Notes: generated by a model from the letters alone, not told the origin. 64,000 bases of DNA from an uncultured Acidimicrobiia bacterium (GCA_963786955.1 CAWBAT010000004.1:800001-864000); one strand, 5' to 3'. Counted from the stretch's first letter, positions 6,780 through 26,536 are shown. Program-made: numbers and translations.

Positions 6780-6803
6780 AGCACCGAAATAAGGACATCC
6801 ATT

Positions 6804-7043
6804 ATGCTTTTACCTCAGATCCCGGAAGGAGCAGCTCTTCGGATCTTGGGATTCACCGGGACACGCCGTTTGCGCCGGGACTTGGCGCAATTAGGAATCC
6901 AGATCGGGGACATTGTTCGTGTTCACCGTCATGTCCCGTTTGGCGGGCCGATCCTCCTGGAGCACTGCGGCACAAAGGTTGCATTGGGGAGGAGCCTGGC
7001 AGAACGAATCCGGGTAGAACAGGTGAATGGGGAATCGCCTTAA
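6804..7043 (+). CDS. feoA: Ferrous iron transport protein A
   Basis: LAQLGIQIG...PFGGPILL...KVALGRSLAERIRV, directly upstream of feoB. Confidence 0.9.
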   Translation: MLLPQIPEGAALRILGFTGTRRLRRDLAQLGIQIGDIVRVHRHVPFGGPILLEHCGTKVALGRSLAERIRVEQVNGESP

Positions 7044-8938
7044 TAGGACAACCTAATTCCGGGAAAAGCACCCTTTTCAACAGTGTTGCAGGCTATCGTT
7101 CAGTCACCTCTAATTTCCCCGGCGTCACCGTTCATTACACGAGTGGCCGGATCCGCTTCAATGGTCTGCTTTCCCAGCTCATCGACTTACCAGGCATCTA
7201 CTCGCTGACGGCGTCAAATCCAGCCGAAAGCGCCACCTGTGATTTTCTGCTGCAACAATCTCCGAATGCCCTCATCAATGTCATCGACAGCTCTGTTCTC
7301 TCGCGCAGTCTGGAGCTTACGTTGCAACTACTCGAGTTTGGGTATCCGATGGTTGTCTGCTTAAATATGATGGATGAAGCTCATCGGAAAGGCATCCGTA
7401 TTGATCCGCACAAACTCTCCGAGAAACTCGGGGTGCCGGTGATTGAAACGATTGCCGCCGAGGGCATCGGTATCCACCGCCTCTTCCAGGAAACCTTTCA
7501 GGTGATCGGCCGGAAACCAGCAGCAGGGACGGGAGTTGGGTTTGATCGGGACACCGAGACGATTATTGATGAACTGGTGCACCAGATTGTAAAGTTTCCA
7601 GACGTACACAGACGGTTACCACCCCGTCTTTTGGCCATCCGTCTGTTAGAAGACAATCCTCAACTGGCGGAGCAAAGCCTGACACTGCCAAAAGAACAGA
7701 TCGAGGCCGCCCGCCTCCAATTGGAAGCCAATCGCGGCAAACCAGCGGAAGAAGTGATTGAATCAGAGCGCCATGCCCTTTCCATGAAGCTTTTCGAGGA
7801 GGTAGCCAGCGTAAGCACTCCTCCACGGGACGTGCGCGAAAGCCTCGATGCCATTCTTACCCACAAAGTTTGGGGATATCTGATTCTAATCGGGATGCTG
7901 GTTTCTTTTTTTGGGATGGTCTACGGAGTCGGAATGCTCCTGGAGCGTCCAGTCCTGGGGGTGTTTGAGTGGGTGATCGCAGCTGCCGGCCGATGGATGA
8001 ATCCATCCGGATTACCGTTTGCGTTATCCAAAGGTCTCGTCCAAGGCGTTGCAGGCGGGGTCGCCATTGTTCTTCCCTACTTGCTCCCTTTCCTGATTGG
8101 CATGGCTGTCCTGGAGGATATTGGGTATTTGCCGCGAGTTGCTTTTCTCATGGACTCCTTCATGCACCGCATCGGGCTCCATGGGGTTGCTGTCATCCCA
8201 GCCATTCTCGGCTATGGCTGCAACGTTCCTGCGGTGATGGCCACGCGAATCCTCTCTTCCCCTCGAGACCGCTTCATTGCGGCTTTTATCTCTACCTTGA
8301 CGCCCTGTTCTGCGAGAATGACCGTCATCTTCGGATTGGTTGCTTTCTACCTCGGTCCTTTATGGGCCTTATTGATTTACGTCATTAATTTTGTAGTGAT
8401 CGCGCTTTCAGGAAGAATTCTCACTGCAATAATGCCGGAAAGCTCTCCCGGATTGATCCTTGAAGTCCCCCCTTACCGTACCCCGAAATTCTCTACTTTG
8501 ATGGGAAAGACCTGGTTGCGCATGAAGGAATTCGTCGTCGTTGCCTGGCCGTTGTTGATCGCGGGGAGTTTTTTGCTCAGTCTTGCTGAGTACTATCACT
8601 GGGACAAGGTGCTCAATGCCGGGCTGTCTCCGTTAACATCACTGCTTGGCTTGCCTGCGGCGGTTGGAACAACCCTGATCTTCGGGATTCTTCGGAAAGA
8701 ACTTTCAATGATCATGCTCCTGCAGGCGTTGGGGACAACCGATGTTCAATCGGTCCTATCCGTAGGACAGATTTTTGTGTTTACGATTTTTATTACCTTC
8801 TATATTCCCTGCGTAGCCACCATCGCTGCCCTCATCAAAGAAATTGGCTGGAGGATGGCCTTGGCAGTTGCTGTCTATAGCCTGTCCTCGGCCGTGCTGA
8901 TTGGGCTGGGTGGACGGCTCCTTTTCGCCGCGCTTTGA
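7027..8938 (+). CDS. feoB: Ferrous iron transporter FeoB (start probably displaced by an indel in a G run)
   Basis: G1 GQPNSGKST, NFPGVT, DLPG, NMMD, gate motifs GYGCNVPA and YIPCVA. Confidence 0.95.
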
Positions 8939-9278: not shown

Positions 9279-10662
9279 TTGATGAAAATAAACCGACGAA
9301 ATTTTATTGCTTCTTCGGCGGCAGGAGTAGTTGGCGTTTCCACCACAGCAAAGAGTTTTGCCAACATTATGGGGGCCAATGATCGCATCTTGATGGGCTT
9401 TATCGGTCTGGGGGGAATGGGCCAGTACAATCTGAAGGATTTTCTCCAAATGAAGGACGTATCCGTGGCCGCAGTGTGTGATGTATGGGAACATAATCTG
9501 AGTGTGGCTTCGAAATTGACCGAAACCCAACCGTCCGGCAAAGCCAAGGGATATTCAGATTTTCGCAAGCTACTAGAAATGAAAGAGATCGATGCTGTCT
9601 TGATTGCGACTCCCGACCATTGGCATGCTTTTCCAACAATTCAGGCTTGCGAGGCAGGCAAAGATGTCTATATCGAAAAACCATTGGCCTACTGTATTCA
9701 GGAGGGCCGCAAGATGGTGGAGGCTGCTCGAAAGAATAACCGTGTGGTCCAGATGGGCACCCAGCAACGATCCGGTAAACATTACGCCGAAGCCTCTCAA
9801 CTGATCCGGGAGGGAAGATCGGCAATATTAGTCGGGTTGCCGCCTGGAATTACGGCAATGAGTCTCCTCTCGGCATCGGTAATCCTCCCGATGGAGACTC
9901 CTCCCGCCGGATTAAACTGGGACATGTATCTGGGAGCCGCACCCGTCGTCCCCTTTAATCCCAATCGCTTCATAGTGAATTTCCGTTGGTTTTGGGATTA
10001 TGCAGGCGGAATGATGACCGATTGGGGGGTCCACCATATTGACACCGTCCATATGGCCATGGGGGTAAAAGCTCCAAATTGCCGTGTGCACTTTCGGGCG
10101 GAAGTTCGTTCTGAGAGATAATCGCCAAACTCCCGACACTTTGGAAGTGACCTACGAATATCCCGAATTTATTCTGACTTATTCCAGCCGCTTTCTGAAC
10201 AATCGCAGCGCCCAAGGAAGGATCTACGGAATCGAATTCTTTGGAACGGACGGGACACTCTTCATTGACCGAGCCGGCTATGAGATCTACCCTGAGACAC
10301 GGAAAATTGACGAGGAGCCTGTCCCGCCTTATCTGAAAAAACTCAAGAACGACGAAAACCCCCCGAAGCCTTGGGAAAAGGAACGATCCGAACGTCTAGA
10401 ACGCACTCAGCTCGTTCAGGGCGAAGGGTCTGAACAACACATCTATCATGTGCGTAACTTTCTGGATTGCGTGAAGAGCCGGCAGCGTCCGGTCTCCGAC
10501 GTGGAAGAGGGGCACCGCTCGACGACGGCAGCCCATCTTGGGAATATCTCCTTACACGCCGGCAGAAAAATTCGTTGGGATGCCGAGAAGGAAGTAGTCA
10601 TCAACGATCCCGAGGCCAACAAGCTGCTCACTCGTGAATATCGAAAACCGTGGGAAGTCTAG
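9279..10662 (+). CDS. Tat-exported Gfo/Idh/MocA family oxidoreductase (frameshifted)
   Basis: RRNFI Tat motif, [31 protein letters not shown]; C-terminus in ORF 10084..10662. Confidence 0.9.
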
Positions 10663-11728: not shown

Positions 11729-13109
11729 TTATTCAAGATTGTGTTTCTTGACCTTGTAGCGCAACGTGTCGCGACTGATTTTCAGTAATTTCGCGGCTTT
11801 GGTCTTGTTGCTGTTGGCATACTGAAGAGCCTGTTGGATCAATTCTTTTTCGATAGCCTCCAATCCGGCACCTTCCGAAGGGAGCTTGATCAATGGTCTC
11901 CAGATACCCTGGATAAGGTCGTGGCTACGCTCGGATCCAGGATTCGGATGGGCAGTTCCGACACATCGATTGTTTCATGATCACCAGAATCATGGCCCGT
12001 TCGATGGCATTCTTGAGTTCGCGTACGTTACCTGGCCAGGAGTAGTTCATCAGCAATTTCATGCCCTCGGGTGTAATCCCTTGCACGTCTTTGCGGAACT
12101 GAATGTTATAACGCTGAATAAAATGTTCAATTAGGGCGGGAATATCCTCCTTGCGTTCTCGCAATGGGGGAATGACGATCGGGATGACGGATAGCCGGTA
12201 ATAAAGATCTTCCCGAAATTTGCCTTCGCTAACAACCGTTTCCAAATTGCAATTGGTTGAGGCCACAACCTGAACATTTACCGAGATATCCTTGACCCCT
12301 CCTACCCGTCGAAAGGTCTGATCTTCCAGAACCCGAAGAAACTTCGACTGCATGTTGATATGCATTTCGCTGATTTCGTCCAGGAAAACGGTCCCACCGT
12401 CAGCCATTTCAAAGACCCCCTTCTTCATGGTCTTGGCATCGGTAAAGGCTCCTTTCTCATAGCCAAAGAGTTCCGTCTCAATCAAGGTCTCTGGGATGGC
12501 GGCACAATTGAGCGCAAAAAATGGATTGTCCCGACGGGAACTCTCGTAGTGGAGCGCTCGGCTGACCAGGTCTTTTCCGGTTCCGCTTTCTCCCTGGACC
12601 AGCAACGTCGTTGTCCCAGACTGAGCGAGTCGCTTGATTAACACCAGCACATCGCGAATCGGCTTTGAGCGGCCAACAATATTCTCCAGACTAAAGCGAA
12701 TCTTGTTGGTCTTAAATGTCTGGGCTACCTGGGTTTTAAGGCGGAAAGTTTCTAGAGCGTTGCGAACAATGTTTTCAAGTTTTTCGAAATTGATGGGTTT
12801 CTCAATGAAATCATAGGCACCCAGCTTTAGGGCTTGAACCGCGACATCCACAACCCCAAAAGCCGTAATCATGATCACCGGCAGGACGGGATGGTTCTCT
12901 TTGATCTCTTTCAGCAACTCAATTCCGCTGCCATCCGGCAGCTTTATGTCGAGAGTCACGAGATCCGGTGTTTCCTGGCTAATCTTTCGCATGGCCTCCT
13001 GGATATCTTCGGCTTCCGAAACTTGGTAGCCCCAGGATCCTAGCTTTTGCTTCATCGACCATCGAATCAGCTTTTCGTCATCAACTATCAGTATGTTTTC
13101 GCGTGGCAT
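11729..13109 (-). CDS. Sigma-54-dependent response regulator, NtrC family (frameshift near 11975)
   Basis: REC domain, GESGTGKD, GAFTDA, FLDEI, WPGNVRE; Fis HTH (ISRDTLRYKVKKHNLE*) read manually to 11729. Confidence 0.92.
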
Positions 13110-13268: not shown

Positions 13269-14765
13269 TCAGCGGGACAGTGAGGGATGAAACACAGGGA
13301 TTAAAGGAAGCTCGATGATGAAACGGGCCCCCTTGTCGGGTTCGCTCTCTACCATGATTTGCCCGCCATGATTGAGAACAATTCGTTTGCAGGTTGCTAG
13401 TCCAAGACCCGTTCCGTGCTTCTTGGTGGTAAAAAAAGGGTGAAAGATTTTGCTTAGCTTGTCTTTGGGAATTCCGGGGCCATCATCTGCCACCTCTACT
13501 TGGATTTTGGAGTCGCCGAGACTCTTCACCTTTACGGTTACGATCCCGTTTGTTTCAATCGCTTCGATGCTATTTAAGATCAAATTCATGAAAAGCTGTT
13601 TTAGCTCGTTCTCATCGCCAATTAAAAATGGGATGCTTCCCAGGTGTTTCAGGCGCAGCGAGATCTTCTTTGAGTCTGCCAGCTTCTTCAGGAACGAGAG
13701 AATCTCTTTGAACAGCTCTACGAGATCGGTCCTCACGAAATCCGGGTTCCCGGGTTTCGAGAACGACAACAAGTTCATCACGCTGCGATCAATTCGCCTC
13801 ACTTCAGAGAGGACTTCGACCAGGATCGCACGGTGAGGATGATATTCCGGCAAGCTGTCGCAAATGATCTCGATCGCGCCCTTAATTCCCGCTAATGGAT
13901 TCTTAATTTCATGAGCCAATCCAGCCGTCAACTCCCCGATTGCAGAAAGCTTTTCCATCTGGGATAAATGCCGGTCCATCAGTTTCTGTTCAGTCACATC
14001 TTTAAGCACAGAGGAGAATCCGATCAGCTTCCCTTCGGGGTCTTTGATCGCCGTGCGAGTGAAGATGACATCAATGAGTTGTCGATCCTTGGTCAATCGT
14101 TGAGTTTGGTAACTGCGTAAGAAGCCTTCGTTGCGAGAGATCTTGGAGATTTGTTCGAGTTCTTTTCTTTCACTGAGATGTGGAGGCAGCAGGATATCCA
14201 AGGATTGTCCCAGCATTTCTTCCTCGGAATAGCCAAAGATCGCTTCTGCGCCTTTGTTCCAGGTGGTAATTCGCTCTCGTGCGATCGAGTGTGAAGATGG
14301 CATCTACCGAATTTCGCAGGATGCTCGCAAAAAACTGCTCTTTCTCCCGAATGACTGTCTCGAGTTCCCGGATCCGGCTCAAATCATGGCAAAGGATAAC
14401 CATCCCTTCCCGTGTCCATGGTCGGAAGGAACAACCGAAACCGAGAGTTTGACCGGAATTTCTCTACTCTCTTTTCCTCGAAGAAGCGTTTCGAAATGAT
14501 ATACCCCCTGGCGATCCTTCAAGGCAGTTGAGATCCTCTGCATCTCCTCTTCTCCTTCCGGTAGAAGCTCTCGAAAGGGTTTCCCAAGGATTTCCGCAAC
14601 CGAATAGCCCAGAAGTTCTTGTGCCCTTGGGATTGAGGGAATTTAGCAACCCTTCCGCGTCGAGGGAGAAGATGGCCTCGTCGACGACACACGACCCGGC
14701 AGTTCTCCTGGCAGATATCTTCTGAACTCGGGAAAGGAGAGTTCAATGGAGATGTCAACTTCCAT
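13269..14765 (-). CDS. Two-PAS sensor histidine kinase (frameshifted 5' part)
   Basis: AHEIKNPL, NSIEA, DDGPG and GTGLGL boxes; PAS fragments in ORFs 14170..14403 and 14464..14760; start approximate. Confidence 0.85.
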
Positions 14766-15214: not shown

Positions 15215-15736
15215 CTATTTGAGGGCTTCACGGCAAGAAGGGCAAAAGAGATTGGATTTTAGGTCAATCTGTTCTACCGAATTCGACGGGTGCATGACGC
15301 AGTCATAGGTGGAACAGTGATGTAGACCAAAAGTATGGCCCAATTCATGGATGGCTTCTTTTTCGCATCGGGCGTATAACAGATCGCGGTCTTCCGGCAA
15401 GCCGTAAAACCGCTGTCTCAACCGGCAAATGGAGATGAGAGCAGAACGGTTGCTCAGTTGAGCTTCTCCAAACACGAAGGTGAGAATGGGAATAAACAGA
15501 TCGACATCGCAAACACCCAAAAGCTTTGCCGAATCGCCATTGGTACAGTTCCGGATTTCTCCTAACAGGAGGGTAGAATAATATTGCTGTCGACCTGTAT
15601 GATAAGCAATGGCTGGGGCAATGACCTTCTTTTCCAGGCTGCATGGCATTTTCAACGTATCCGCTAAAGCCACCTGAAGCCAGGAGAGTATCTCAGAATC
15701 GACATCCCCGATACGAACGAGACGGATTTCTTGCAT
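15215..15736 (-). CDS. Archaemetzincin-family Zn metalloprotease
   Basis: HELGHTFGLHHC zinc motif followed by C-x4-CVM-x2-SNS and FCPSC; FVFGEA motif. Confidence 0.9.
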   Translation of the reverse strand: MQEIRLVRIGDVDSEILSWLQVALADTLKMPCSLEKKVIAPAIAYHTGRQQYYSTLLLGEIRNCTNGDSAKLLGVCDVDLFIPILTFVFGEAQLSNRSALISICRLRQRFYGLPEDRDLLYARCEKEAIHELGHTFGLHHCSTYDCVMHPSNSVEQIDLKSNLFCPSCREALK

Positions 15737-15774
15737 GGACTAATTCGCGGATCCTGCGCAACGATGAGCAGAAG

Positions 15775-17226
15775 TCAGTGCGGAAGACTGGCCCCCTCCT
15801 TTCGTTCTATATTCTCGGGTGATTGACCCTCCTCGCTCACTGGACCGGTTTCCCATCGATCGGCTCCTTTTGAGGCGGCCTCTCTTTTCAGTTCGTATCT
15901 CTTGATCTTGTTGTAGAGAGTCACCCGGTCAATCTCTAGCAGCCGGGCTGCTTGTGAAATATTCCAACCCGTTTCGGTCAATACACGTTGAATATGTTGG
16001 GCCTCGATCGCGGAAATTGAACGATTTCCAGGCAACTGAGGAGACCCATGAGTTTGCAGGGGAAGATCGGCTGGTTCGATCTCGCGCCCTCTGCAGACAA
16101 GGACAGCACGTTCTATGGCGTTCTGTAACTCTCTCACGTTTCCGGGCCAATCATACGCCATGAGCAATCCCATGGCATTGGGGGAAGCGCAAATTACCTG
16201 TTTGTTCATCGACACACTGTGTTTCCGAATAAAATGATCCGCTAAGAGCGGAATGTCTTCCCGACGCTCGCGAAGCGGCGGGATCGTGATTGAAAAGACA
16301 TTCAGCCGATAGTACAGATCCTCCCGAAATGTGCCTTTGGCCACCAGGTTCTCCAGATTCCGATTGGTCGCGGCAACCAGCCGGAAATCAACCGAGAGGG
16401 CCTCATTTCCGCCTACCCGGGTAATCTTCTTTTCCTCAATGACCCGCAAAAGATCAATCTGTGTCTTCAGACTGATATCCCCGATTTCATCGAGGAAAAG
16501 GGTCCCCCCATCAGCCATTTCAAACTTTCCTTTTCTCCGGTATTGGGCTCCCGTAAAGGACCCCTTTTCATGACCAAAAAGCTCGCTTTCGAGAATCCCC
16601 TCCGAAAGCGCGCCACAATTAACAACCAGGATGGGCATATATCGCCTGGGGCTATTCGCGTGGATCGCCCTGGCCACCAATTCCTTGCCTGTTCCACTTT
16701 CTCCCCGGATGAGGATCGTCGTGTCGGTGGCTGAAACCAGCATTACCTGCTCCAAGACACGTCGCATGGCGCCACTCCGTCCAACAATTTCGTGAAAACG
16801 GGACAATTCATCAATCTTTTCTCGCAATCGCAAGTTTTCAGAAAAGAGCACTCGTCGTTCTGCGGCATTCCTAACCAAGTGTTCCAGGTCATCCGGGTCG
16901 ATCGGTTTGACGACGTAGTCATAAGCACCTTGTTTCATGGCCTCCACCGCCGTTTCCACAGAGGCGTAAGCGGTCATCAGAATGATCGTGGAGTTCGGAT
17001 CAACCTTTCGTATCCTTTTTTGCAGCTCCAGCCCATCCATTCCCGGCATTTTAATATCCAGCAAATAGATATCCCATTGCTGTTGGGTGAGCTTTTCAAG
17101 AGCTTCCTTTCCTGATCCGGCCACATCAACTTGATAACCCTCTTCCTCAAACCAGCTCTTAAGAGAATCTCGCACACTCGCTTCGTCATCTGCGATTAAG
17201 ATCCGGATATTACTATTTTTTACCAT
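15775..17226 (-). CDS. Sigma-54-dependent response regulator, NtrC/AtoC family
   Basis: REC, GESGTGKE, GSFTGA, FLDEI, Fis HTH. Confidence 0.95.
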   Translation of the reverse strand: MVKNSNIRILIADDEASVRDSLKSWFEEEGYQVDVAGSGKEALEKLTQQQWDIYLLDIKMPGMDGLELQKRIRKVDPNSTIILMTAYASVETAVEAMKQGAYDYVVKPIDPDDLEHLVRNAAERRVLFSENLRLREKIDELSRFHEIVGRSGAMRRVLEQVMLVSATDTTILIRGESGTGKELVARAIHANSPRRYMPILVVNCGALSEGILESELFGHEKGSFTGAQYRRKGKFEMADGGTLFLDEIGDISLKTQIDLLRVIEEKKITRVGGNEALSVDFRLVAATNRNLENLVAKGTFREDLYYRLNVFSITIPPLRERREDIPLLADHFIRKHSVSMNKQVICASPNAMGLLMAYDWPGNVRELQNAIERAVLVCRGREIEPADLPLQTHGSPQLPGNRSISAIEAQHIQRVLTETGWNISQAARLLEIDRVTLYNKIKRYELKREAASKGADRWETGPVSEEGQSPENIERKEGASLPH

Positions 17227-17237
17227 GATGCACCTCG

Positions 17238-18893
17238 TTAGGCTTCCACTCCATGGGGTAATAACTCAGTATTCTTCTCGTGCTCGGCGTCCTGCTCATC
17301 CTTTGTTCTTAAGGGCAATCGTATGAGGAAGGCGGTCCCTTTGCCCGGACTGGACTGGACTTCAATGGTCCCGCTGTGCTGTTGAACAATGCCGTAAACC
17401 ACAGCCAAACCTAAGCCAACACCTTTTCCTTGTTCCTTGGTGGTAAAGAACGGTTCAAAAATATGTTTCTGGGTCTCTTCGTTCATTCCGATCCCATTGT
17501 CTTGGATGGTTACTTCCACAACTGACTTTTCCACGCATTGTTGGGTGCGAATTTCGAGGATACCTTCTCCTGCCGGCATGGCTTCACAGGCATTAATGAT
17601 GAGTGCAACCAGAGCCTGCCGAATCAGCTGTGCATCACAGAAGACCTGAGGAAGAGCCTCATCCAAACGTAACAAGGTCTGGAGGTTCATCAGGTCAATC
17701 TTGTGCTGAACGAGTCGCAGAGATTGTCGAATCAATTCATTCAAAGGATTCGGCTGGAGATTGACCGTGGTCTGCCGAGCAAATTGGAGGAGGTTCTTGA
17801 CAATTTCACCGCAGCGAGCCGATTCGCTGGCAATGACTTCGAGGTATTGAGTGGCGGTTTCAGCTTTTGGGAGAGTTCCCTTCTCATTTCTTATCTGTTT
17901 AAGCAGAAGCTTGGCATAGGTCAGAATCCCACTCAAAGGATTGTTGATTTCATGCGCAACGATGGCCGCCAACTTGCCAATGGAAGACATTCGTTCCGCA
18001 TAAACAATTTGCTTTTGTGCACTCTGGAGTTCTTCCGTCTTCTCGCGAATCCGGTTCTCTAGCGTTTTGTTCCATTCATCGAGCTGGCCTTTGGCACGCC
18101 GCAATTCCAGAACCATCTGATTAAATGAAGCCGCCAGCTGGCCAATTTCGTCCCGCGACGAGACCGGGATCAGTTCATCCAGATTCCCTGAGGCGACACG
18201 TTTTGTTCCCAGCGTGAGTTGCTTGACGGGCCGATAAACCATCAGCCAGATCGGTGCCCCGATCAACAATGGGATCGCAATGATCGCGAAGATAAAACTG
18301 ACCACGACACTCTGGGTTCCATCGGCGATGGCCTCGTCAACCTTGGCCATCGACATGGTCACATCTAATACGCCGAGCACTTGTTTATCGGGGGGATGAG
18401 CATGACAGTCGGAGTTGGTGCAACTCGGCTCATTCTCTATCGGGTTAATCAGCCCTAGATTCCGTTTTCCGCCCGATGCATTGTATATCCGCATCCGGTC
18501 GGGCCTTTTCAGACGGCGGAGAGGCTCCCCTTGAAAATGACAGGCCGTACAGGCTTCCGCCTGCTTGTCCACGAAGGTGCCCACCTCATTAGGATCGGTG
18601 GAATAACTGATTCTTCCATTCTCGTTATAAATGCGGATCTTGCCGATGCCGGGCTCCCCCCCGATCGTGCTAATAATGTGATAGACTTCATCGCGATGGT
18701 TCTGGAGCATGGAGTAGCGAGTACTTCGCTTAATGGTGTCGCTGATACGGTCGGCACTGACAAATACAGACTCCTCAAGATGCTGCCGGTGCAAACGAAC
18801 AACCTGCCTCCCCAACAAGACAAAGATCAAAAGCAAAACAACTACCAAGCAAATCGTGAGTCTAAGGCTGAGATTGAATGAACGGGTTGACAT
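17238..18893 (-). CDS. Membrane HAMP histidine kinase with a periplasmic heme c-binding sensor domain
   Basis: Two TM helices flank a domain with CTACH and CTNSDCH; HAMP; AHEINNPL; GVGLGL. Confidence 0.92.
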
Positions 18894-18930
18894 CCCGGTC
18901 TCTATCCTTCAAGCCAATGGCTTCTTTTAT

Positions 18931-20535
18931 CTATTCGCTTTGATGACAAAGTTGGCAGTCCTCTTTGGTGCTGAAAGACTTTTTCCCATCATGGCAGCTC
19001 CCACATTGGTCTTCCCGATGCATATCGATCTTCTTATCCAGACGAGAAGACTTCAGGCTCGATTTCAGGATTGCAAAGCGTTGAGTGTGGCAGAAACTGC
19101 AATCCGGCCGTTTCATGTCGATGTGTGAAGCATGACGAAAAGTGACTATTCCCAGGCTCCCCTCACCCTGCGGAAAAACGATGTCGTCGGGCAGTCTGAG
19201 TTGCTTCAACCCTTCGTCGGGACTGGGTGCTGCTTCCTTCCCGGAAGCGGACACGATTGCCGGGTTAGTTCGCAATAATATTCCGCTGACAGCCAACGAC
19301 ATGCTACCGAACAGGAAAACCCCTCCAAGGGCTAGAACCAACGTTGTGCTGCTCAATAGGGGCTGCTGTAACACAACGGGCGCTAAAAACTCAGGGGACA
19401 CTTCCTCTGATCCTTTTGAACTCTCCTCTGGAAAAACGGGCAATGTTTTTATGGCGATTCTGAACAGAAGGAAACCAAGTGCCACGATACTTAAGGTCAC
19501 GGATAGTTCAGTCCAGCTGGGAAAGTACTGCCGACCCAAAGCGCCTTCCATTCCCGAGATACTGATGTTCAATCGATTCATGACAAATCCCAGGATCACC
19601 AGCACAGAAGAAACAAAAAGGCTAAAATGGTTGTGCCTTATCCGCGGGATGGCGAGCAGGACAATGGGAGCGAGTATTCCCAACACGATTTCCGCCAGGA
19701 ACATTCGAGCTTCATAGGTCGGCTCAAAAATCTCGCTCAATACACCCCTTCCTCCCAAGTCCTGAAGCTTAAGAACGAAATAGACACTCAAAGCCACGAC
19801 AATGACTTTGGCCAAGTCAGCAAGAAGATCTATCTCCAGGCGCTTCCGGAATGCGCGGTAGCTCAGGAAGGACTCGAGAATCGTCATGGCACAACCCAGC
19901 GCGATCGCTGAGATGAAGAAAAATACCGGAAGAAACGATGAATACCAGAATGGATGGAGCTTGTGAGGCACAATCAAGTAGAGCGATCCCAGCGACGACT
20001 GGTGGAGCGTGGACAAGATCACACCCAATATGACCAAGGGAATCATCACTGACTTCACGATCTTAAACGGGAGTTCCCATTTCAAGTGCTGCAATAGCAT
20101 GGGACTAAATTCGAGGGCCAGCACCGTCGTGTAGAGGGTAACGCACCACCCCACTTCGAACATCACGGAACGGGGATTCCACATCACCAGTGGGTGCCAG
20201 ATACGGTAAGGCCTACCTAGATCAAAAAGCAGCGCAATGATGACCAACAAATATCCAAGGAAGGCCGTCAAGATGGTGGGACGTACGATCGGTTTGAACC
20301 GTCGGATGTTGAAAATGTAAACACAGGCGCTGATCGTGAATCCGCCCGCCGCCAGTGCCACTCCACAGAGAATGTCGAATCCAATCCACAACCCCCACGG
20401 AAAGCTGTCACTGAGAGCCGTACTGGCTCCCAAGCCTTGAGTAAAGCGAATATAGGCGCTGTAAAGCCCGCAGGCAAAAATGAAAGAGACCAGTACCCGC
20501 CAAAATGTCAGCTTAGGAAATGACGTCCTCTCCAT
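18931..20535 (-). CDS. HybB/NrfD-family membrane protein fused to a C-terminal triheme cytochrome c7-like domain
   Basis: PWGLWIGFD, DLGRP, SVMFEV and LSTLHQSSLG motifs; C-terminal CSFCH, CGSCH, CQLCH; start MERTSF at 20535. Confidence 0.88.
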   Translation of the reverse strand: MERTSFPKLTFWRVLVSFIFACGLYSAYIRFTQGLGASTALSDSFPWGLWIGFDILCGVALAAGGFTISACVYIFNIRRFKPIVRPTILTAFLGYLLVIIALLFDLGRPYRIWHPLVMWNPRSVMFEVGWCVTLYTTVLALEFSPMLLQHLKWELPFKIVKSVMIPLVILGVILSTLHQSSLGSLYLIVPHKLHPFWYSSFLPVFFFISAIALGCAMTILESFLSYRAFRKRLEIDLLADLAKVIVVALSVYFVLKLQDLGGRGVLSEIFEPTYEARMFLAEIVLGILAPIVLLAIPRIRHNHFSLFVSSVLVILGFVMNRLNISISGMEGALGRQYFPSWTELSVTLSIVALGFLLFRIAIKTLPVFPEESSKGSEEVSPEFLAPVVLQQPLLSSTTLVLALGGVFLFGSMSLAVSGILLRTNPAIVSASGKEAAPSPDEGLKQLRLPDDIVFPQGEGSLGIVTFRHASHIDMKRPDCSFCHTQRFAILKSSLKSSRLDKKIDMHREDQCGSCHDGKKSFSTKEDCQLCHQSE

Positions 20536-20627
20536 AATTCCTCCACAATGTAAGAGGGATAAGTCTTCGTGCTCATCAGAACCCGGCCAGTTCAAGCAAG
20601 AATTGCCGCCCCTGGCTGTAAGCGCGT

Positions 20628-21383
20628 TTACTCGGACCCGGAGCTTTTGGCAACCTTTTCGCGCCGGGCTGTTATCCACCAGATTCCGCCTAGAAGCACA
20701 TTCCCCAACAAGACGAAGTTGGGTATCTTCTGCAAAACGTGCCAAGTTAGCAGAGGCAACGGCTCCTTCTCAATTTGAGTGGGATAGCCTAACTCCCCCA
20801 AAGGGACATCCGAGATCAATAGAACCGAGGTTCCCCCCACTTCCTCAAGACCATAGATATGGTTTATGTACTTTCCTGACGGAGTGGATAATCGCCGGCG
20901 CGCTTCTTCAATCAATTCTTCCCGATTCCCAAATAGGGTGGCCTGCGTGGGGCAGGCTTCCGCGCAAGCCGTGGGAAGCCCTTGAGCCAGTCGGTCAGAG
21001 CAGAGGTCACATTTTCGCACTCTGGGAAGAACTTTATTCCATTCGTATTTCGGGATGTCAAAAGGACAAGCCACCATGCAATAGCGGCAGCCTATACATC
21101 GATCTTCATAGTAGACTACGGGTCCTGCCTCGGTCTTCCGCAGGGCGGCTACCGGGCAGACGGAGGCACAAGTCGGGGTCTCGCAATGCATGCACAGACG
21201 TCGGACGAATCGACCGTGGGTCTGTTTGACGACGGTATAAGTCTCCGCCGAAAGATTATCTTTCAGGAAATCGATGCTGGATGAAGGCAGGCTGTTTCTT
21301 TCTTTACAGGCTATGTAGCAAGCTCCGCAGCCGACACAGCGCGTGCTATCGAAGAGGATTCCTTTCTTCGTCGAATTGTCCAT
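20628..21383 (-). CDS. HybA/FdnH-like 4x[4Fe-4S] protein with C-terminal TM anchor
   Basis: CVGCGACYIAC, CMHCETPTCASVCP, CIGCRYCMVACP, CDLC...CAEACP; YGLEEVGGTSVL. Confidence 0.9.
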   Translation of the reverse strand: MDNSTKKGILFDSTRCVGCGACYIACKERNSLPSSSIDFLKDNLSAETYTVVKQTHGRFVRRLCMHCETPTCASVCPVAALRKTEAGPVVYYEDRCIGCRYCMVACPFDIPKYEWNKVLPRVRKCDLCSDRLAQGLPTACAEACPTQATLFGNREELIEEARRRLSTPSGKYINHIYGLEEVGGTSVLLISDVPLGELGYPTQIEKEPLPLLTWHVLQKIPNFVLLGNVLLGGIWWITARREKVAKSSGSE

Positions 21384-21431
21384 AGGGGCGTCCTTTGACG
21401 ATCGACACACCCCCTCCCGTCTGTTGAATAA

Positions 21432-21447
21432 TGCAACTTCCCTTCCA
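21432..21447 (-). promoter_or_regulatory. Possible internal sigma-54 promoter
   Basis: Minus strand TGGAAG-GGAAG-TTGCA about 50 bp upstream of the hybA-like start. Confidence 0.45.
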
Positions 21448-21634
21448 AAGCACGTTTTGTTGAAAATCAAATCAGTTCTTTTGGAAATGGCTGACGGGCC
21501 TTAGCTTGTCTTGCTTCTCGACCCTTGAAAGCAGTCCTTCGATGACAATTCCTAGAAGGAAAGTGGGGCAAAAAGCCAAACAGCTATTGGGGTTTCGAGA
21601 GATTTGGCCGAGTCAGCGTGAGGATACCGGGGCC

Positions 21635-22348
21635 TCACGCTGTTCTCATTTTGGATTGGTCATTGTGTAAGAATTCTCTGGTGAATTTATTCCAGGTGTC
21701 ATTGTCCATCAATTCCAATACTCCACTGGTGATTTCTCCTCCATCCTGGAGGACGATTCCCAGAGCGGTATTTTCAACCGGCCTCGACAGAATGAAGTCT
21801 TGAAGCCGTCTTGCTTCGGTCTTAAGCCAGGCTAACGCTTCCTCTGCAATCAACATTTGTCTAAGATTGCTCGCAAGATTGCGGGGACGCAAGGAACAGA
21901 GCCAGCCTTCACGATATGGATCCCTTGGGACCCTGCCGAGATCTTTGGAAAGCGCTTCATTGACCATTTCTACGACTCCATCGATGGGTGCTTTGAAAGT
22001 GGCTTCCCGTTCCCCTTGGCGGAGGGTGAAAAGATCATCACCGCGCCGGAATTCCTGCCCGACCCGAGGCAGTAGGAGCTTGTCTATTGTGCCCATGGCG
22101 TACTGAGCAAATGCATCGATCCCCACATTGGCAGTTCCGTCCAGATTAAGACTAAGCCAGGTATGACCGCGATCCGTATAGATGCCTCCTGGGAGAGACT
22201 TAACCGTATCAGGAAAGTTCCAAGGACTTCTTTGAGCTGGCTTGGGTCCAGAAGCCGCCTCTAGGCGTTTGAATTCTGATTTCTGTACGAGGGCGTCCAC
22301 CAGAATAAATGCTACGATCGTGAAAATAACAAATATGGCAACCATCAC
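21635..22348 (-). CDS. Membrane-anchored GcvH-like protein without the lipoyl lysine
   Basis: N-terminal TM helix; HTW, VGIDAFA, APIDG and DPYREGW motifs; ESVK replaced by RQGE. Confidence 0.8.
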   Translation of the reverse strand: MMVAIFVIFTIVAFILVDALVQKSEFKRLEAASGPKPAQRSPWNFPDTVKSLPGGIYTDRGHTWLSLNLDGTANVGIDAFAQYAMGTIDKLLLPRVGQEFRRGDDLFTLRQGEREATFKAPIDGVVEMVNEALSKDLGRVPRDPYREGWLCSLRPRNLASNLRQMLIAEEALAWLKTEARRLQDFILSRPVENTALGIVLQDGGEITSGVLELMDNDTWNKFTREFLHNDQSKMRTA

Positions 22349-23142
22349 AATCCTCCTTTCAGAAACAACGCAATCATCTTCCGTTGTTGATCGGGACTTA
22401 AAAAAGCAATGAAATTTTCGAAGGGCCTTCCGCCGTCAGGCAGTGTTGTTCCTAGATCGGCACTGGACTGGTCTATCAATTTGGCTAGCTCATGATTTAA
22501 GCGGCAATATTCATTTGCAGACCAGGCTTTGGCCTGTTCACCATAATGAAATTCTTTGAGGCTACTCTCCAAATTGTCTGGTCGCATGTACAAAGCCCAT
22601 CCTTCCCCATAAGGGTCTTGATTCATGAGGGAGGGAGACACCATGAGCTTTTCATTTCTCTTCTCAATGGTCCCTTTTATCGGGATAGGAACTTCCGTTT
22701 CGCCGGCCCCGTGGGCGATTCTCCAACAGGCATTCCCATTGGAAACCTGGGTTTCTGCAACGGGTAGCCCCACACTGTAAATCCTTCCAACCAAGCGTTG
22801 GGCAAAGTCATCCAGACCGATCCTCACTTTCCCTTCTTCCTCAACTCGCGCCCATACATGCGCTGGGTGCAAAAAAACATCCCCGATGTATTCCTGGCTG
22901 CCAAGCGGTACGGTATGCCTCGTTCCGTCGTGTCCTGGGCGGTGTCGGTGAGAGTCGGTTTCCCCAGCCGTGCACTGATTTTCTTTTGTCTCAAGCCATG
23001 CCTGGTAAAATGCACAATGTTCACAGTCATAATCACGATCGCAGAGCTTGAAATTGACCGTGCCAGACATCATCCAGATACATTTGAGAAGTCGAATTTC
23101 AGCTTGTTGACCCTGTCCTTCCTTTTTCCAATAATCGATCAT
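22345..23142 (-). CDS. GcvH-like protein with Cys-rich N-terminal domain, no lipoyl lysine
   Basis: CIWM-x8-C-x5-CxxC, then HVW, IGLDDFA and DPYGEGW; ESVK replaced by AHGA. Confidence 0.8.
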   Translation of the reverse strand: MIDYWKKEGQGQQAEIRLLKCIWMMSGTVNFKLCDRDYDCEHCAFYQAWLETKENQCTAGETDSHRHRPGHDGTRHTVPLGSQEYIGDVFLHPAHVWARVEEEGKVRIGLDDFAQRLVGRIYSVGLPVAETQVSNGNACWRIAHGAGETEVPIPIKGTIEKRNEKLMVSPSLMNQDPYGEGWALYMRPDNLESSLKEFHYGEQAKAWSANEYCRLNHELAKLIDQSSADLGTTLPDGGRPFENFIAFLSPDQQRKMIALFLKGGL

Positions 23143-23182
23143 GGTCACCCTCCTTCTCCAACAGATCTCAACCTCTACTAGG

Positions 23183-23197
23183 GCAAATGAAGTGCCA
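23183..23197 (-). promoter_or_regulatory. Sigma-54 (-24/-12) promoter
   Basis: Minus strand TGGCAC-TTCAT-TTGC, a consensus match about 40 bp upstream of the ATG at 23142. Confidence 0.8.
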
Positions 23198-23651
23198 TGT
23201 TTAAAGGCCCAGAAAAGTTCTTTCAAGAAGGTGTATCTAGTTGAATAAAAATGAGTTAGTAAATAGCTAATCCGAAGGTCTAAACGGGCTGCTGTTTATT
23301 TATTCAACGCCTCAAGTGGAGAGACTCCTCACAACTTGCCTTATCCAATGAAGAACTCAACACTTAGATCGGTGTATAATCTCTCAACACCGGGTGTTGA
23401 ATGAGACAACAGCGGATTCTATTTTCTGAAGCTGGAAGAGTTTAATCTGAAGCAGGGGATACTTTGTCAAATCACCCGCATGGTGGCAGCCTGTTCCCAA
23501 AGAAGATCTAAAGCCGAGGACGTTCCCCGGAGTAATTTCTTTATTTTGTGTAGGTTTGTTAATTAATTGAATTGACCGAAAGCGGTCATTAAATTGCCTT
23601 CGCCTATTCGTGAGCTAGAATTTGATTTGCCGGAGGAGTCACTCAACAGCT

Positions 23652-25144
23652 ATGAGCTCTGTTACGAATTGGATCCCGATGAAGTGGCCCTGTGGTCCCT
23701 TAGAGGTTGCACTCCGCCAGAGACAAGGAGCACTTAGCGAGGAATTGCGGCAGTCTCTTCAATTGTGGCTACAGCCGTCTTCACTAGCAATTGTTGAGAA
23801 GACTCCGGTCAATTGCCTTGTCATTCGTTGGGCTGCAGGGCTGCCTCAAGATGAGGAACAACAAAAAAGCCTCAAGCCACTGCTGGAAAAAGGGAAGGAG
23901 TTAGGGCTTTCTTTCGCTGGCGTGATCGAAGGAGCCGCCGATAAGCAAGCTGCTCTCAAAACTGCTGCCGATGCTGGTCTTTCAGCCATCATCTCGTCGG
24001 ATCCAAGTAAGCTTTCAGGCAAGCTCCCGATTATTGAATCGTATCAGCGTTCAACCTTGTCCAGCAAAATGACGAGCCCGTTGCTTGCCTGTGGCGACGC
24101 GCTTTGGCCGCGTCTGCGTTCTAGCGTCGCTGCCGACACAGACGCCGTCGTTGCCGGACCAACGGGAGTTCCTTGGGTGGATTCGAATGGATGGTACGTG
24201 CAGCTGGCCAGAACGCTAAGCCACGAAAAGCCTATCTGGTTGATGTTTGATCCTCCAAAAGCAACTTCCGTCCTTCATGGGGAATCCTATTTACTGGCGT
24301 TGGCCGACACGGAAGCTTACGGAGCTCGCTGGGCTGTTTCCCTGGATGACCAATTCAGGAGCGAGCTGGCGAGTCATAGTCCTTCAGCTCTCAAGAAATG
24401 GAAAGGCATCGCAGATGCTTTGTCTTTCTTCCAGAAACGACAAGAATGGAACTCCTTTCGCCCGAAAAGTGTTCTGGCTGTTGTTTCCGATTTTTCAGGT
24501 GCCAATGAATTCCTCAGTGGCGAAGTGTTAAATCTTCTGCGTCGAAGGCAGGTGGCCTTCAGCATTGTCGAGAAATCATCATGGACCGAAACTTCGCAGG
24601 GAGATGTTAAAGCTGTTTTATGGGTAGATCGGGAACCCGTGGGTAAAGACCACATGGCGGAGTTGCTGGGCTTTGCGGAAAAAGGGGGTTTGTTGATCGT
24701 TCCCAAGACGTGGGGGAAAATTCCGGGGACAGCCCAGGGGACCGAGCTAGATGATCGCTTTGAGATCTACAGCAAGGGAAGGGACGTGTGGCTGTGGCCA
24801 GGACAGAGACTGAAGACCCCTATGCGATGGCGGAGGAGGCTCACTTACTATTGAGCCGGCGGAACGATTTGTTTAGACTTTGGAATGCAGGATCTTTCAA
24901 CGGTTACTTAACCGCTTCCGCGGACAGGAAGAAAACTTTATTGCAATTGATTAATTATGCAGGACGAGATGCAGTAGATCTTTTGTCGGTATGGGTGAGG
25001 GGCAACTATTCGCAGACTAAGGTTTGGAGACATTGCAGTGATAATCCGGCGGCCCTGAACTCTGTGCCCATGCAGAATGGCCAGGAATATCATCTGCCTC
25101 CCATTGGTTATTATGTCGCGATTGAAATGGAGAACATGCTCTAG
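23652..25144 (+). CDS. Hypothetical protein (frameshift near 24780)
   Basis: Long ORF with GGAGG RBS, continued by ORF 24788..25144; no family recognised. Confidence 0.7.
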
Positions 25145-25339: not shown

Positions 25340-26536
25340 ATGCGAACGGAACTCAATCGAAGGGAATGGCTGACGACAGCCGGAAAATCCCTTGCCGGTA
25401 TCTATCTCGGCCGTACCCTGACGAGCTATGCATCAACGGCACCGACCGCTCCAGTGTCTGTCGCCAAATGTCCCAATTACGGGGATATCCTGGTTCCCAC
25501 TCTGGAAAAGATGTTCGATCAATTAGGGGGACTCGATAGACTCGTCAAGGGTAAAACGGTTGCCATCAAGCTGAACCTCACAGGGAATCCCAACCATCGG
25601 CTCGCTCACCTCCCTTTAGGACAGGCGCAATGGGTGCATCCCAAGATAGTCGGCGCAACGGTCTATCTTCTGGGTCAGGCAGGGGCTCGGCGGATCCGGT
25701 TGTTGGAGAGCCCCATGTCCACCAGTGAGCCTCTCGAAGAATTCATGCTCGCGGCCAATTGGGAGCCGCGCGAGTTCCTGAGTGCCGCTCCTCGGGTAGA
25801 ATTTGAAAACACGAATTATCTGGGGACAGCCAAGAAGTACACACGATTTCAGGTGCCGCGTGGAGGACTGCTCTTTTCAGCCTACGATTTGAATCATTCC
25901 TACGAAGATTGTGATGTTTTCGTGTCTATCGCGAAGCTAAAGGAACATCTGACGGCAGGCATCACGCTTTCCATGAAGAATTGCTTTGGCATCACCCCTT
26001 GCACGATTTATGGGGAAGCCGCCGGAGAGGACGAACCCAGTCTCACTCCCAAGGGCGGGCGAAGGCTATTCCATGACGGATTCCGGCAACCTTCAAAGTG
26101 CTCGCCTCCGGAAAAAGATCCTTCTGGTTCCCGTGAGGGAGGGTATCGCGTCCCCCGGGCAGTCGTCGATTTGGTGGCAGCACGGCCAATCCACCTGGCC
26201 ATTATTGACGGAATTGACACCATGACATCCGGAGAAGGTCCCTGGGCGCCGAATACCCGCCCCGTTAAACCCGGAGTGCTGATTGCCGGAACAAACTGCG
26301 TCACCACGGACGCCGTCGGTACGGCCATCATGGGATATGATCCCATGGCGGATCGGGGAATCTCTCCATTTGAAACTTGTGACAGCACTCTTCGCCTGGC
26401 AGAAGACATGGGCCTGGGAATTCGGGATCTCAACCGCATTGAGGTTCGGGGTGTCCCCATCCCACAGGCCAGATTCGACTTCAAGCCTTATCACAACTCT
26501 CCTTGGAATGTCGAAGATCTCGACTTCCGATGCTGA
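25340..26536 (+). CDS. Tat-exported DUF362 domain protein
   Basis: RREWL signal; IKLN, AKLKEH...TLSMKN and IIDGI...EGP motifs. Confidence 0.8.
   Translation: MRTELNRREWLTTAGKSLAGIYLGRTLTSYASTAPTAPVSVAKCPNYGDILVPTLEKMFDQLGGLDRLVKGKTVAIKLNLTGNPNHRLAHLPLGQAQWVHPKIVGATVYLLGQAGARRIRLLESPMSTSEPLEEFMLAANWEPREFLSAAPRVEFENTNYLGTAKKYTRFQVPRGGLLFSAYDLNHSYEDCDVFVSIAKLKEHLTAGITLSMKNCFGITPCTIYGEAAGEDEPSLTPKGGRRLFHDGFRQPSKCSPPEKDPSGSREGGYRVPRAVVDLVAARPIHLAIIDGIDTMTSGEGPWAPNTRPVKPGVLIAGTNCVTTDAVGTAIMGYDPMADRGISPFETCDSTLRLAEDMGLGIRDLNRIEVRGVPIPQARFDFKPYHNSPWNVEDLDFRC

Follow-up and report, generated by a model that had tools for sequence, protein, structure and literature searches.

A sigma-54-linked cassette of lipoate-less GcvH-like proteins, a HybAB-c7 membrane module, a di-haem sensor kinase and an archaemetzincin in an uncultured Acidimicrobiia bacterium and its recurrence in other genomes

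In a stretch of 64,000 nucleotides from an uncultured Acidimicrobiia bacterium (GCA_963786955.1 CAWBAT010000004.1:800001-864000; hereafter the window, with positions counted from its first letter), seven co-oriented genes behind a sigma-54 promoter encode two GcvH-like proteins, a HybA-like and a HybB-like subunit, a haem-c histidine kinase, an NtrC-type regulator and an archaemetzincin. Gene-neighbourhood counts in other genomes confirm that these seven genes form a conserved functional unit and not a chance neighbourhood, a chance juxtaposition being rejected on the synteny counts. The cluster may be one clade-specific form of a widespread cassette combining signalling with electron transfer, a reading to which we give an even chance. 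Its parts belong to known families and the logic of a regulated quinone module is likewise known, and what is new is the GcvH-fold effector together with the pairing that involves the archaemetzincin. An initial annotation, made from the sequence alone, had held that no characterised system of this make-up was known to its author; the literature search agrees, no published description joining these parts having been found in print, with supplementary files and subscription journals outside the search. The promoter and the genes are:

23183-23197, minus strand: P1, sigma-54 -24/-12 promoter, TGGCACTTCATTTGC, a perfect TGGCAC-N5-TTGC
22345-23142, minus strand: G1, soluble GcvH-fold protein of 265 amino acids
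21635-22348, minus strand: G2, membrane-anchored GcvH-fold paralogue of 237 amino acids
20628-21383, minus strand: G3, HybA/HmcB-like Fe-S protein
18931-20535, minus strand: G4, HybB/HmcC-like NrfD quinone subunit fused to a trihaem cytochrome c7
17238-18893, minus strand: G5, sensor histidine kinase with two haem-c motifs
15775-17226, minus strand: G6, NtrC-type sigma-54 activator
15215-15736, minus strand: G7, archaemetzincin (M54)

The layout first described for the cluster was confirmed, all seven open reading frames (ORFs) lying on the minus strand between 15215 and 23142, and from G1 to G7 the six junctions measure -4, 251, 92, 37, 11 and 38 nucleotides. Conservation was followed from three independent anchors, namely G1, G4 (HybB) and G7. 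Strong G1 orthologs (>190 bits) are found in 5 of 40 relatives, one from the same genus and four from other genera of the family. The seven genes stand in order in a genome of the same genus (G001) and in one of another genus of the same family (G006), and the window's order is kept up to the contig ends in G012 and G017. All seven recur in 11 further loci from metagenome-assembled genomes: the window's order is found in L022, L025, L027-L030, L035, L036 and L099, and the genes are also present in L038, in a different order, and in L061. All hits in a locus fall on one strand, except in L061, where the two regulators lie on the opposite strand. Genes flanking the cassette are common only to the same-genus genome, so that the seven genes themselves appear as the unit. 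The order of the block is conserved across Acidobacteriota, and parts of it recur in several other phyla.

The loci anchored on G1 are the best 80 of 403 relatives (598 pattern matches, one genome per species) and come from Acidobacteriota (Blastocatellia, Pyrinomonadaceae, Thermoanaerobaculia), many Desulfobacterota, Nitrospirae, Eisenbacteria, Zixibacteria and Stahlbacteria. Within 9 kilobases (kb) of the G1-like gene, tblastn places an archaemetzincin in 65 of these 80 loci, NtrC in 62, the kinase in 59, a second H-like gene in 26, and HybA and HybB in 18 each. Full flanks are available for 40 loci, of which 36 have an archaemetzincin, 36 NtrC and 36 a kinase, while 13 carry a further H-like gene and 8 HybAB. 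The constant set around the G1-like anchor consists of the kinase, NtrC, the archaemetzincin and the sigma-54 promoter, HybAB being optional. In Desulfobacterota the order is a kinase with a cytoplasmic PAS/GAF sensor, NtrC, archaemetzincin, a gap and the G1-like gene, with variable neighbours, such as HdrL-like (18 loci), HdrD-like (10), MTHFR (8) and NifU-like (7) genes, or MltF/TraT-like genes in L053.

With HybB or the archaemetzincin as anchor, hybA-hybB-kinase-NtrC-archaemetzincin is the block seen most often. G4 has a match in 58 of 151 genomes sampled from the phylum, and among its best 29 loci outside this genome HybA lies directly upstream in 29 and a di-haem kinase directly downstream in 22. 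G7 has a match in 45 of the 151 genomes, with NtrC directly adjacent in 24 of the best 29 loci. In the metagenome-derived set (best 80 of 301 relatives of G7), 33 loci extend by at least 1.4 kb to either side, and 29 of them have an adjacent NtrC gene; 15 loci extend by at least 6 kb to either side, and of these 14 have NtrC, 14 the kinase, 14 HybB and 11 a GcvH-like gene. In some loci, for example L203 and L215, no H-like gene is adjacent, and a full-length G2-like gene was found elsewhere in all five such genomes tested. The closest HybB proteins outside the family (63-64% identical; L170 and L171, from genomes G071 and G137) are encoded as gcvh2-hybA-hybB, with no kinase, NtrC or protease gene beside hybAB and a protease/NtrC pair elsewhere in the genome. 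Decayed cassettes also occur: in L019 (G011:C97:1-7000) about 56 residues of the hybA-like gene remain and hybB is spread over three frames, and of L024 only G1, the protease and pieces of hybB are left. L071, L084, L097 and L253 have either two neighbouring kinase/NtrC/archaemetzincin sets or H-like genes in tandem, which suggests paralogous expansion of the module.

Control by sigma-54, another part of the initial annotation, is upheld by its conservation in relatives. P1 lies 41 nucleotides before a GGAGG/ATG start at 23142 and is the only TGGCAC-N5-TTGC match in the 64 kb, where 0.13 are expected by chance and 13 of 100 shuffles give at least one match. Taken alone, it is thus weakly significant; it becomes convincing because it is conserved in relatives. 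The same-genus ortholog has GGCA..TTGC at its place. Upstream of the G1-like gene, a strict element (TGG[CT]A[CT]-N5-T[TC]GC) is present in 49 of the 80 loci and a relaxed one (GG and GC fixed, at most two mismatches) in 24 of the other 31, while the relaxed scan finds 8 in 72 coding control stretches; in several of the misses (L038, L055, L061), another gene heads the block. A possible second element precedes hybA:

21433-21447, minus strand: P2, possible sigma-54 element, TGGAAGGGAAGTTGC, with two mismatches, GG/GC kept, 50 nucleotides before hybA

Comparable elements precede hybA in the genome of the same genus and in three loci (L025, L028, L031); in L020 one stands ahead of the kinase gene. 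P2 can tentatively be taken as evidence for self-activation. Sediment metatranscriptome contigs 90-99% alike (mostly 90-95%) cover parts of G7, G6, G5 and G2 and the G4/G5 junction. Such contigs cannot show starts, strand or level, and uncovered stretches mean nothing, so that this cover is a weak hint only. Of the sampled words, the best DNA runs contain a fraction of only 0.2-0.37 and two sediment RNA libraries 0.15 and 0.06.

The gene directly behind the conserved promoter encodes a GcvH-like protein. Pfam places a GCV_H domain at residues 94-205 of G1 (79.7 bits) and another in G2 (68.4 bits), and with NCBIfam GcvH scores of 78.3 and 69.4 bits both proteins remain below the cut-off of 117. 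The true gcvH of the genome lies on another contig (C6), scores 146 bits and carries an ESVKA motif. When aligned to it, the lipoyl-lysine column, Lys in the genome's own GcvH, holds Ala in G1 and Glu in G2, which bears out the earlier statement that these proteins are devoid of the lipoyl lysine; for the same reason, a metabolic role as lipoyl carrier was rejected for both. The H-protein core of G1 is nonetheless modelled by AlphaFold2 with a pLDDT (predicted local distance difference test) above 90, its best Foldseek match being GcvH 1onl (TMt 0.90), and a search of the ESM Atlas returned only unnamed clusters, at 0.90 and 0.87. On either side of this core G1 has further elements:

Residues 21-43, window 23014-23082, minus strand: four-cysteine head of G1, C-x12-C-x5-C-x2-C
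Residues 230-241, window 22420-22455, minus strand: DGG loop of G1

The tail of G1 consists of a long helix, the loop, which is disordered in the monomer model, and two short helices, and D236, G237 and G238 are invariant in 18 sequences. A profile search with G1 gathers 1237 representative clusters at E<=1e-30. G2 has an N-terminal transmembrane helix (predicted peak at residues 2-21), followed by an H-like domain with a DGG loop. In about 17 orthologs of G2 no charge precedes this helix and a K/R cluster follows it, so that the H-like domain is predicted to be cytoplasmic. Neither G2 nor the receiver fusions described below have a Cys motif in their sequence. Two distant homologues of G1 (P0078 and P0079, 420-440 amino acids) have GCV_H fused to ferredoxin domains, 2Fe-2S and 4Fe-4S, of the type found N-terminally in NuoG.

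A hint as to what the H-like domain does comes from Holophagae. In six genomes (L163-L168), the block consists of hybA, hybB, the di-haem kinase and then one uninterrupted ORF of about 373 amino acids, which combines a G2-type N-terminal transmembrane helix, a receiver (PF00072, 95 bits) and a GcvH-like domain (PF01597, 58.7 bits). This fusion stands where NtrC and the protease would be, and both the AAA+ activator and the archaemetzincin are absent from the six blocks. All of the best 120 homologous clusters listed have both Pfam domains, are named only 'response regulator' and come from Geothrix and Holophagaceae. Given the order transmembrane helix, receiver, GcvH-like domain, the H-like domain must be expected on the cytoplasmic side, and since it is joined to a receiver it would be the output of the phosphorelay. 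Judged from this domain architecture, the H-like domain looks like a signalling output and not like a metabolic carrier. The initial annotation had cast the GcvH-like proteins as modulators; this has to be revised, as their gene lies directly behind the conserved promoter and their domain is fused to a receiver as output in Holophagae.

The archaemetzincin, for which a modulating role had likewise been supposed, is better described as tied to the NtrC gene and predicted to bind the GcvH-like protein. G7 scores 93.6 bits with Peptidase_M54 (Pfam) and 168 bits with NF033823 (NCBIfam, cut-off 145). It has the motif HELGHTFGLHHC-x4-C-x-M-x16-CxxC, X16 replacing X17 in the family motif HEXXHXXGXXHCX4CXMX17CXXC, and H130, E131, H134, H140, C141, C146, C165 and C168 are invariant in 20 sequences, so that by its motif G7 is a catalytically intact archaemetzincin. 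Its relatives in the Protein Data Bank (PDB) are 2x7m, 3zvs and 3lmc. To our knowledge, the family has no known physiological substrate. AfAmzA was inactive on many test substrates, and its authors, in the part of their paper available here, propose that activity is triggered (PMC3427221). A paper on Thi4 mentions archaemetzincin only as a structural neighbour of DUF6775 (PMC13325395), and no title or abstract among the literature matches listed deals with the regulation of archaemetzincins.

Three prediction runs for a complex of G7 with G1 gave ipSAE scores of 0.68, 0.65 and 0.70, against 0.00 for the highest-scoring of three controls; at least 81% of the contacts are common to the runs, and the partner pLDDT is at least 70. 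In calibration, the mark of the tool was reached by 116 of 157 solved complexes and by 2 of 215 mismatched pairs, counts that are only roughly valid for this pair because own alignments were used. As archaemetzincins are in the PDB only under protease names, recall of a solved complex is unlikely. The predicted interface brings the edge strand 82-96, H130, E131, H134, H140 and the Met-turn region 150-153 of G7 to residues 230-241 of G1, the loop that holds the invariant D236, G237 and G238, and also includes the flanking helices of G1. The model supports, and does not show, binding of the DGG loop of G1 in the active-site cleft of G7. Of 81 GcvH-like ORFs that have an archaemetzincin in their vicinity, 70 contain DGG; none of the six receiver fusions does, and their clusters have no protease. 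In family f39, to which five of the fusion-form genomes belong (G074, G089, G152, G164, G176), 1 of 9 genomes has a protease match, and the sixth fusion-form genome (G166, family f66) has a weak partial one (1.5e-14). DGG thus tracks the protease imperfectly, and the counts, coming from related genomes that are not independent, are suggestive.

The kinase G5 has the order transmembrane segment, periplasmic PDC/PAS-like domain, transmembrane segment, HAMP, HisKA, HATPase, with Pfam matches to HAMP, HisKA and HATPase_c. Two haem-c motifs lie in its periplasmic part:

18537-18551, minus strand: CxxCH (CTACH) of G5
18402-18422, minus strand: Cx4CH (CTNSDCH) of G5

Both motifs and Met33 (numbered in the sensor alignment) are invariant in 21 of 21 kinases, one of which has CxxCH at the second site. 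The AlphaFold2 model of the sensor has a pLDDT of 85.4. The sensor domains of WalK, KinD, DctB and CitA are its best Foldseek matches, the haem-c sensor GSU0935 (3b42) is found at E 6.7e-4, and the score against the haem-c PAS-like family PF21563 is 20.8 bits, below the cut-off of 27. The genome encodes rpoN as well as cytochrome c maturation proteins, and G6 scores with Sigma54_activat (233.9 bits), Response_reg (119.4) and HTH_8 (53.7) and has GSFTGA, the Walker A sequence GESGTGKE and the receiver Asp. The same di-haem kinase is found beside HybAB without c7 (L036, L038 and most HybB-anchored and protease-anchored loci) and without any HybAB (L020, L042, L068, L059). The kinase therefore cannot depend on reading the c7 haems, and this part of the initial annotation falls.

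Regarding the membrane module, G3 matches Fer4_11 (Pfam, 75 bits) and, below the equivalog cut-offs of NCBIfam, HmcB (254.4 bits, cut-off 420) and HybA (216.3 bits); its sequence has 16 Cys in four [4Fe-4S] motifs. A hydrophobic C-terminal segment followed by a K/R-rich tail is seen in its orthologs, and such an anchor with a strongly basic tail would place the Fe-S domain in the periplasm. An RRxFLK signal occurs in two orthologs, from Nitrospirae (L038) and Desulfobulbaceae (L061), the HybB of both being without c7. A search for TatC (PF00902) gave no match in this genome (G000, 93.3% complete); 39 of 41 relatives have it, among them carriers of the cassette and both same-genus genomes. Its absence from G000 is most likely an assembly gap, and loss of the twin-arginine translocation (Tat) pathway was rejected as the reason for a signal-less HybA, since TatC is found in those relatives.

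G4 combines NrfD (101.8 bits) with Cytochrome_C7 (40.9 bits) according to Pfam and scores with HmcC (351 bits, cut-off 550) and HybB (310 bits) below the equivalog cut-offs of NCBIfam, the c7 part exceeding the cut-off of TIGR04257 (56.5 against 40 bits). Eleven hydrophobic segments can be read as about ten transmembrane helices, an eleventh helix and then a periplasmic c7, and the basic loops are consistent with the N-terminus lying inside the cell and c7 outside.

Residues 464-532, window 18934-19146, minus strand: trihaem c7 domain of G4, with CxxCH at 479, 511 and 527

All 12 full-length fused orthologs retain the three CxxCH. G4 shares 32% identity with E. coli HybB and by alignment keeps R89, Y99, D109, S129, E148, H184 and R329, residues of HybB that a review of NrfD proteins, in the sections available, assigns to the quinone site, gate and proton path (PMC8076601). 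The c7 fusion is limited to the window's clade, and in L163 a separate lipoprotein-type trihaem c7 gene directly before hybA represents the unfused form of G4. No hydrogenase, molybdoenzyme, nitrite reductase or gcvT/P gene is in the cluster or directly adjoining it. The observation that HybAB has no catalytic partner in the cluster is thus borne out, and none accompanies it in any locus examined. To call the pair an 'orphan', as was done at first, is an overstatement, as a cytochrome c with Fe-S and NrfD proteins and no further catalytic subunit is a known kind (NhcABCD/Hmc). In the same review, as far as available, Nhc-type complexes are described as a cytochrome c with an Fe-S and an NrfD-like protein and no further catalytic subunit (PMC8076601), and by its domain content HybAB-c7 is a cytochrome/Fe-S/NrfD module of the Nhc/Hmc type.

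From these observations a composite mechanism of five steps, reaching from sensing by the kinase to a proteolytic layer, can be proposed, which we consider to have an equal chance of being right or wrong. The kinase would read the periplasmic redox state, or a haem ligand, via its two c-haems and phosphorylate the NtrC-type activator. The activator would switch on P1 before G1-G2, and a second promoter before hybA probably also responds, which would make the system self-amplifying. The Nhc/Hmc-like cargo would move electrons between periplasmic carriers and the menaquinone pool through c7, four Fe-S clusters and the quinone site of NrfD. The lipoate-less GcvH-fold proteins, cytoplasmic and one of them tethered to the membrane, would act as effectors or adaptors and not as metabolite carriers, because in Holophagae this domain is joined to a receiver as the regulator's output; candidate targets within the cassette are the kinase itself or the HybB-like subunit at its cytoplasmic face. 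The archaemetzincin would bind the DGG loop of the H-like proteins in its active-site cleft and either process these proteins or be controlled by them, adding a proteolytic layer to the circuit.

The same genes can be arranged in other ways. As in the initial annotation, HybAB(-c7) may be the input wire of the sensor, quinol electrons passing via NrfD, Fe-S and c7 to the kinase haems, so that the kinase reports the redox state of the quinone pool, with the GcvH-like proteins and the protease downstream. Such a relay is compatible with the first, fourth and fifth of the steps above and fits the position of the kinase gene directly after hybB (22 of 29 HybB-anchored and 14 of 15 full-flank protease-anchored loci), the Holophagae cluster, which has hybA, hybB, the kinase and the receiver-GcvH fusion only and no electron donor or acceptor, and the periplasmic location predicted for HybA, c7 and the kinase sensor alike. 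However, it cannot be general, as kinases with both haem motifs are found without HybAB in L020, L042, L068 and L059 and c7 is absent from most forms of the cassette. The Desulfobacterota core, with cytoplasmic PAS/GAF kinases and no HybAB, also speaks against it, as does HybB, in which all the proton-path residues that an energy-coupled enzyme should have are retained; on balance, the relay appears improbable. We hold it similarly unlikely that the cluster is an ordinary respiratory operon, in which a two-component sigma-54 switch drives an Nhc-like cytochrome:quinone oxidoreductase and the GcvH-like proteins and archaemetzincin, without any signalling role, help in assembly or maturation, for instance of the signal-less Fe-S subunit. 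A precedent for the switch exists in BccR/cbcBA of Geobacter: in the portion of the preprint available, induction of the quinone-linked CbcBA at low potential requires BccR, which is a sigma-54 response regulator (bioRxiv 10.1101/2021.04.15.440034). Such an operon also agrees with Nhc-type complexes without a further catalytic subunit (PMC8076601, as far as available) and with the GcvH-like genes that stand, in varying order, on the flanks of hybAB in L038, L061 and the Acidobacteriota loci, which represent three phyla. Yet the constant set of kinase, NtrC, archaemetzincin and GcvH-like protein persists without HybAB, which is present in only 8 of the 40 full-flank loci, the neighbours in Desulfobacterota are variable (HdrL-like, HdrD-like, NifU-like, MltF-like), and a helper of HybAB would not be fused to a receiver as sole output.

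It can further be imagined that the GcvH-like proteins are redox or sulfur carriers, in which cysteines replace lipoate and which shuttle between the membrane module or Hdr-like enzymes and the cytoplasm. The conserved four-Cys motif of G1, the HdrL-like, HdrD-like (CCG) and NifU-like genes often found near the Desulfobacterota homologues, the fusion of P0078 and P0079 to ferredoxin-like domains and the precedent of LbpA with sHdr, as presented in the part available of an eLife paper (PMC6067878), speak in its favor. Against this, G2 and the receiver fusions are devoid of the Cys motif, the NrfD subunit has no cofactor by which electrons could reach the cytoplasm, Hdr-like genes are inconstant neighbours (18 of 80 and 10 of 80 loci) and the Cys domain of G1 has no Pfam match, which makes cysteine carriers very improbable.

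Several observations weigh against the cassette reading and its mechanism. Related genomes are not independent, so that the counts overstate the support, and 4 of the 15 full-flank archaemetzincin loci have no GcvH-like gene within 8 kb. An element like P2, itself weak, was not found in the other 15 loci examined. Between 14300 and 23700, terminators (14 against 9.6 expected) and sigma-70 signals (8 against 8.3) are at chance level, and transcription units could thus not be set. A HybA-like protein should be periplasmic, and no twin-arginine signal is present in 16 of 18 orthologs of G3. The four-Cys head of G1 has no Pfam family even at E up to 10, and its AlphaFold2 model is of low confidence. 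The complex of G7 and G1 is a model score obtained on own alignments, DGG is missing in 11 of the 81 GcvH-like ORFs near a protease, and it is present in 15 of 27 such ORFs without a protease in the locus, many of these contigs being incomplete. Finally, the tight linkage of HybAB and kinase fits the relay equally well.

Going beyond the cassette reading, it can tentatively be hypothesized that lipoate-less GcvH-fold proteins and archaemetzincins are a dedicated client/protease pair for signalling in many phyla, in which the H-like protein-binding output docks onto membrane redox machinery of the NrfD type and is switched by cleavage at DGG. The supply of this output, either made on demand from a sigma-54 promoter or fused to a receiver, belongs to the same speculative idea. 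If true, it would give the archaemetzincin family its first physiological substrate and add a new class of response-regulator output. Three role-less families meet here, namely lipoate-less H-protein homologues, bacterial archaemetzincins (whose relatives include human AMZ1/2) and NrfCD modules without a catalytic subunit, and through the cassette they are connected with a haem-based sensor kinase, both in uncultured bacteria of sediment and soil and in the cultivable Geothrix. The cassette offers a directly testable substrate for an orphan protease family, along with a new output domain for response regulators, and is a likely control point for electron flow between periplasm and quinone pool in anaerobes respiring metals and sulfur compounds.

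With regard to the surroundings of the cassette in the window, a PAS histidine kinase (13269-14303, minus strand) lies directly downstream, followed by an NtrC-like protein of 394 amino acids (11925-13109, minus strand) with a receiver, a sigma-54 AAA+ domain and a partial lid and no match to HTH_8. The latter looks like an activator without a DNA-binding domain and is 94% identical in the same-genus genome. Divergent from the promoter region of the cassette is an ORF of 410 amino acids (23622-24854, plus strand) without a Pfam family, after which comes a DUF362 protein (25340-26536, plus strand); both adjoin the cassette only in the same genus. A GFO_IDH_MocA oxidoreductase is split over the overlapping ORFs 9279-10121 and 10084-10662 (plus strand), which may be due to a frameshift or a sequencing error, and a FeoB ferrous iron transporter (6776-8938, plus strand) is encoded about 6 kb from the cassette.

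Each component can be set against a known system. Like NhcABCD and HmcABC(DEF) of sulfate reducers, the membrane module joins a periplasmic cytochrome c with several haems to an Fe-S protein with four clusters and to an NrfD-like quinone subunit free of cofactors, without any other catalytic subunit. Unlike these, it has only three haems, not nine or sixteen, fused to NrfD via an extra helix, its Fe-S subunit has no Tat signal, the cluster has no NhcD or HmcDEF and no further membrane or CCG subunit, and the module is embedded in a cassette with kinase, NtrC, protease and GcvH-like genes. HybA-HybB of E. coli hydrogenase-2 belong to the same sequence families, with the same four-cluster pattern and C-terminal anchor as in G3, whereas here HybO/HybC are missing, the HybA-like protein has no Tat signal and c7 is fused to the membrane subunit. 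BccR/cbcBA (Cbc5) of G. sulfurreducens, as far as its description is available, is alike in outline, with a sigma-54 regulator and a -24/-12 promoter driving an inner-membrane module from quinone to periplasmic cytochrome; compared by domain content, however, its cargo is the dihaem b protein CbcB and the seven-haem CbcA instead of Fe-S, NrfD and c7, and the available portion of that description mentions neither a GcvH-like gene nor an archaemetzincin. The sensor has in common with the Geobacter chemoreceptors GSU0582/GSU0935 a periplasmic PAS/PDC-like domain with covalent haem-c motifs, of which there are two here, in a histidine kinase rather than a chemoreceptor. Compared with GcvH, LbpA and GcvH-L, G1 and G2 have the same fold and common motifs around the HxW, DDFAQ and PYGEGW positions. 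They differ in the missing lipoyl lysine, in an added four-Cys head (G1) or transmembrane anchor (G2) and, in both, a C-terminal helix, DGG loop and helix, in the sigma-54 control of their genes and in the occurrence of the H-like domain as a response-regulator output. As for AmzA (2x7m, 3zvs) and human AMZ1/2, G7 carries the motif of the family, while its gene is fixed beside an NtrC-type regulator and its product has a predicted client.

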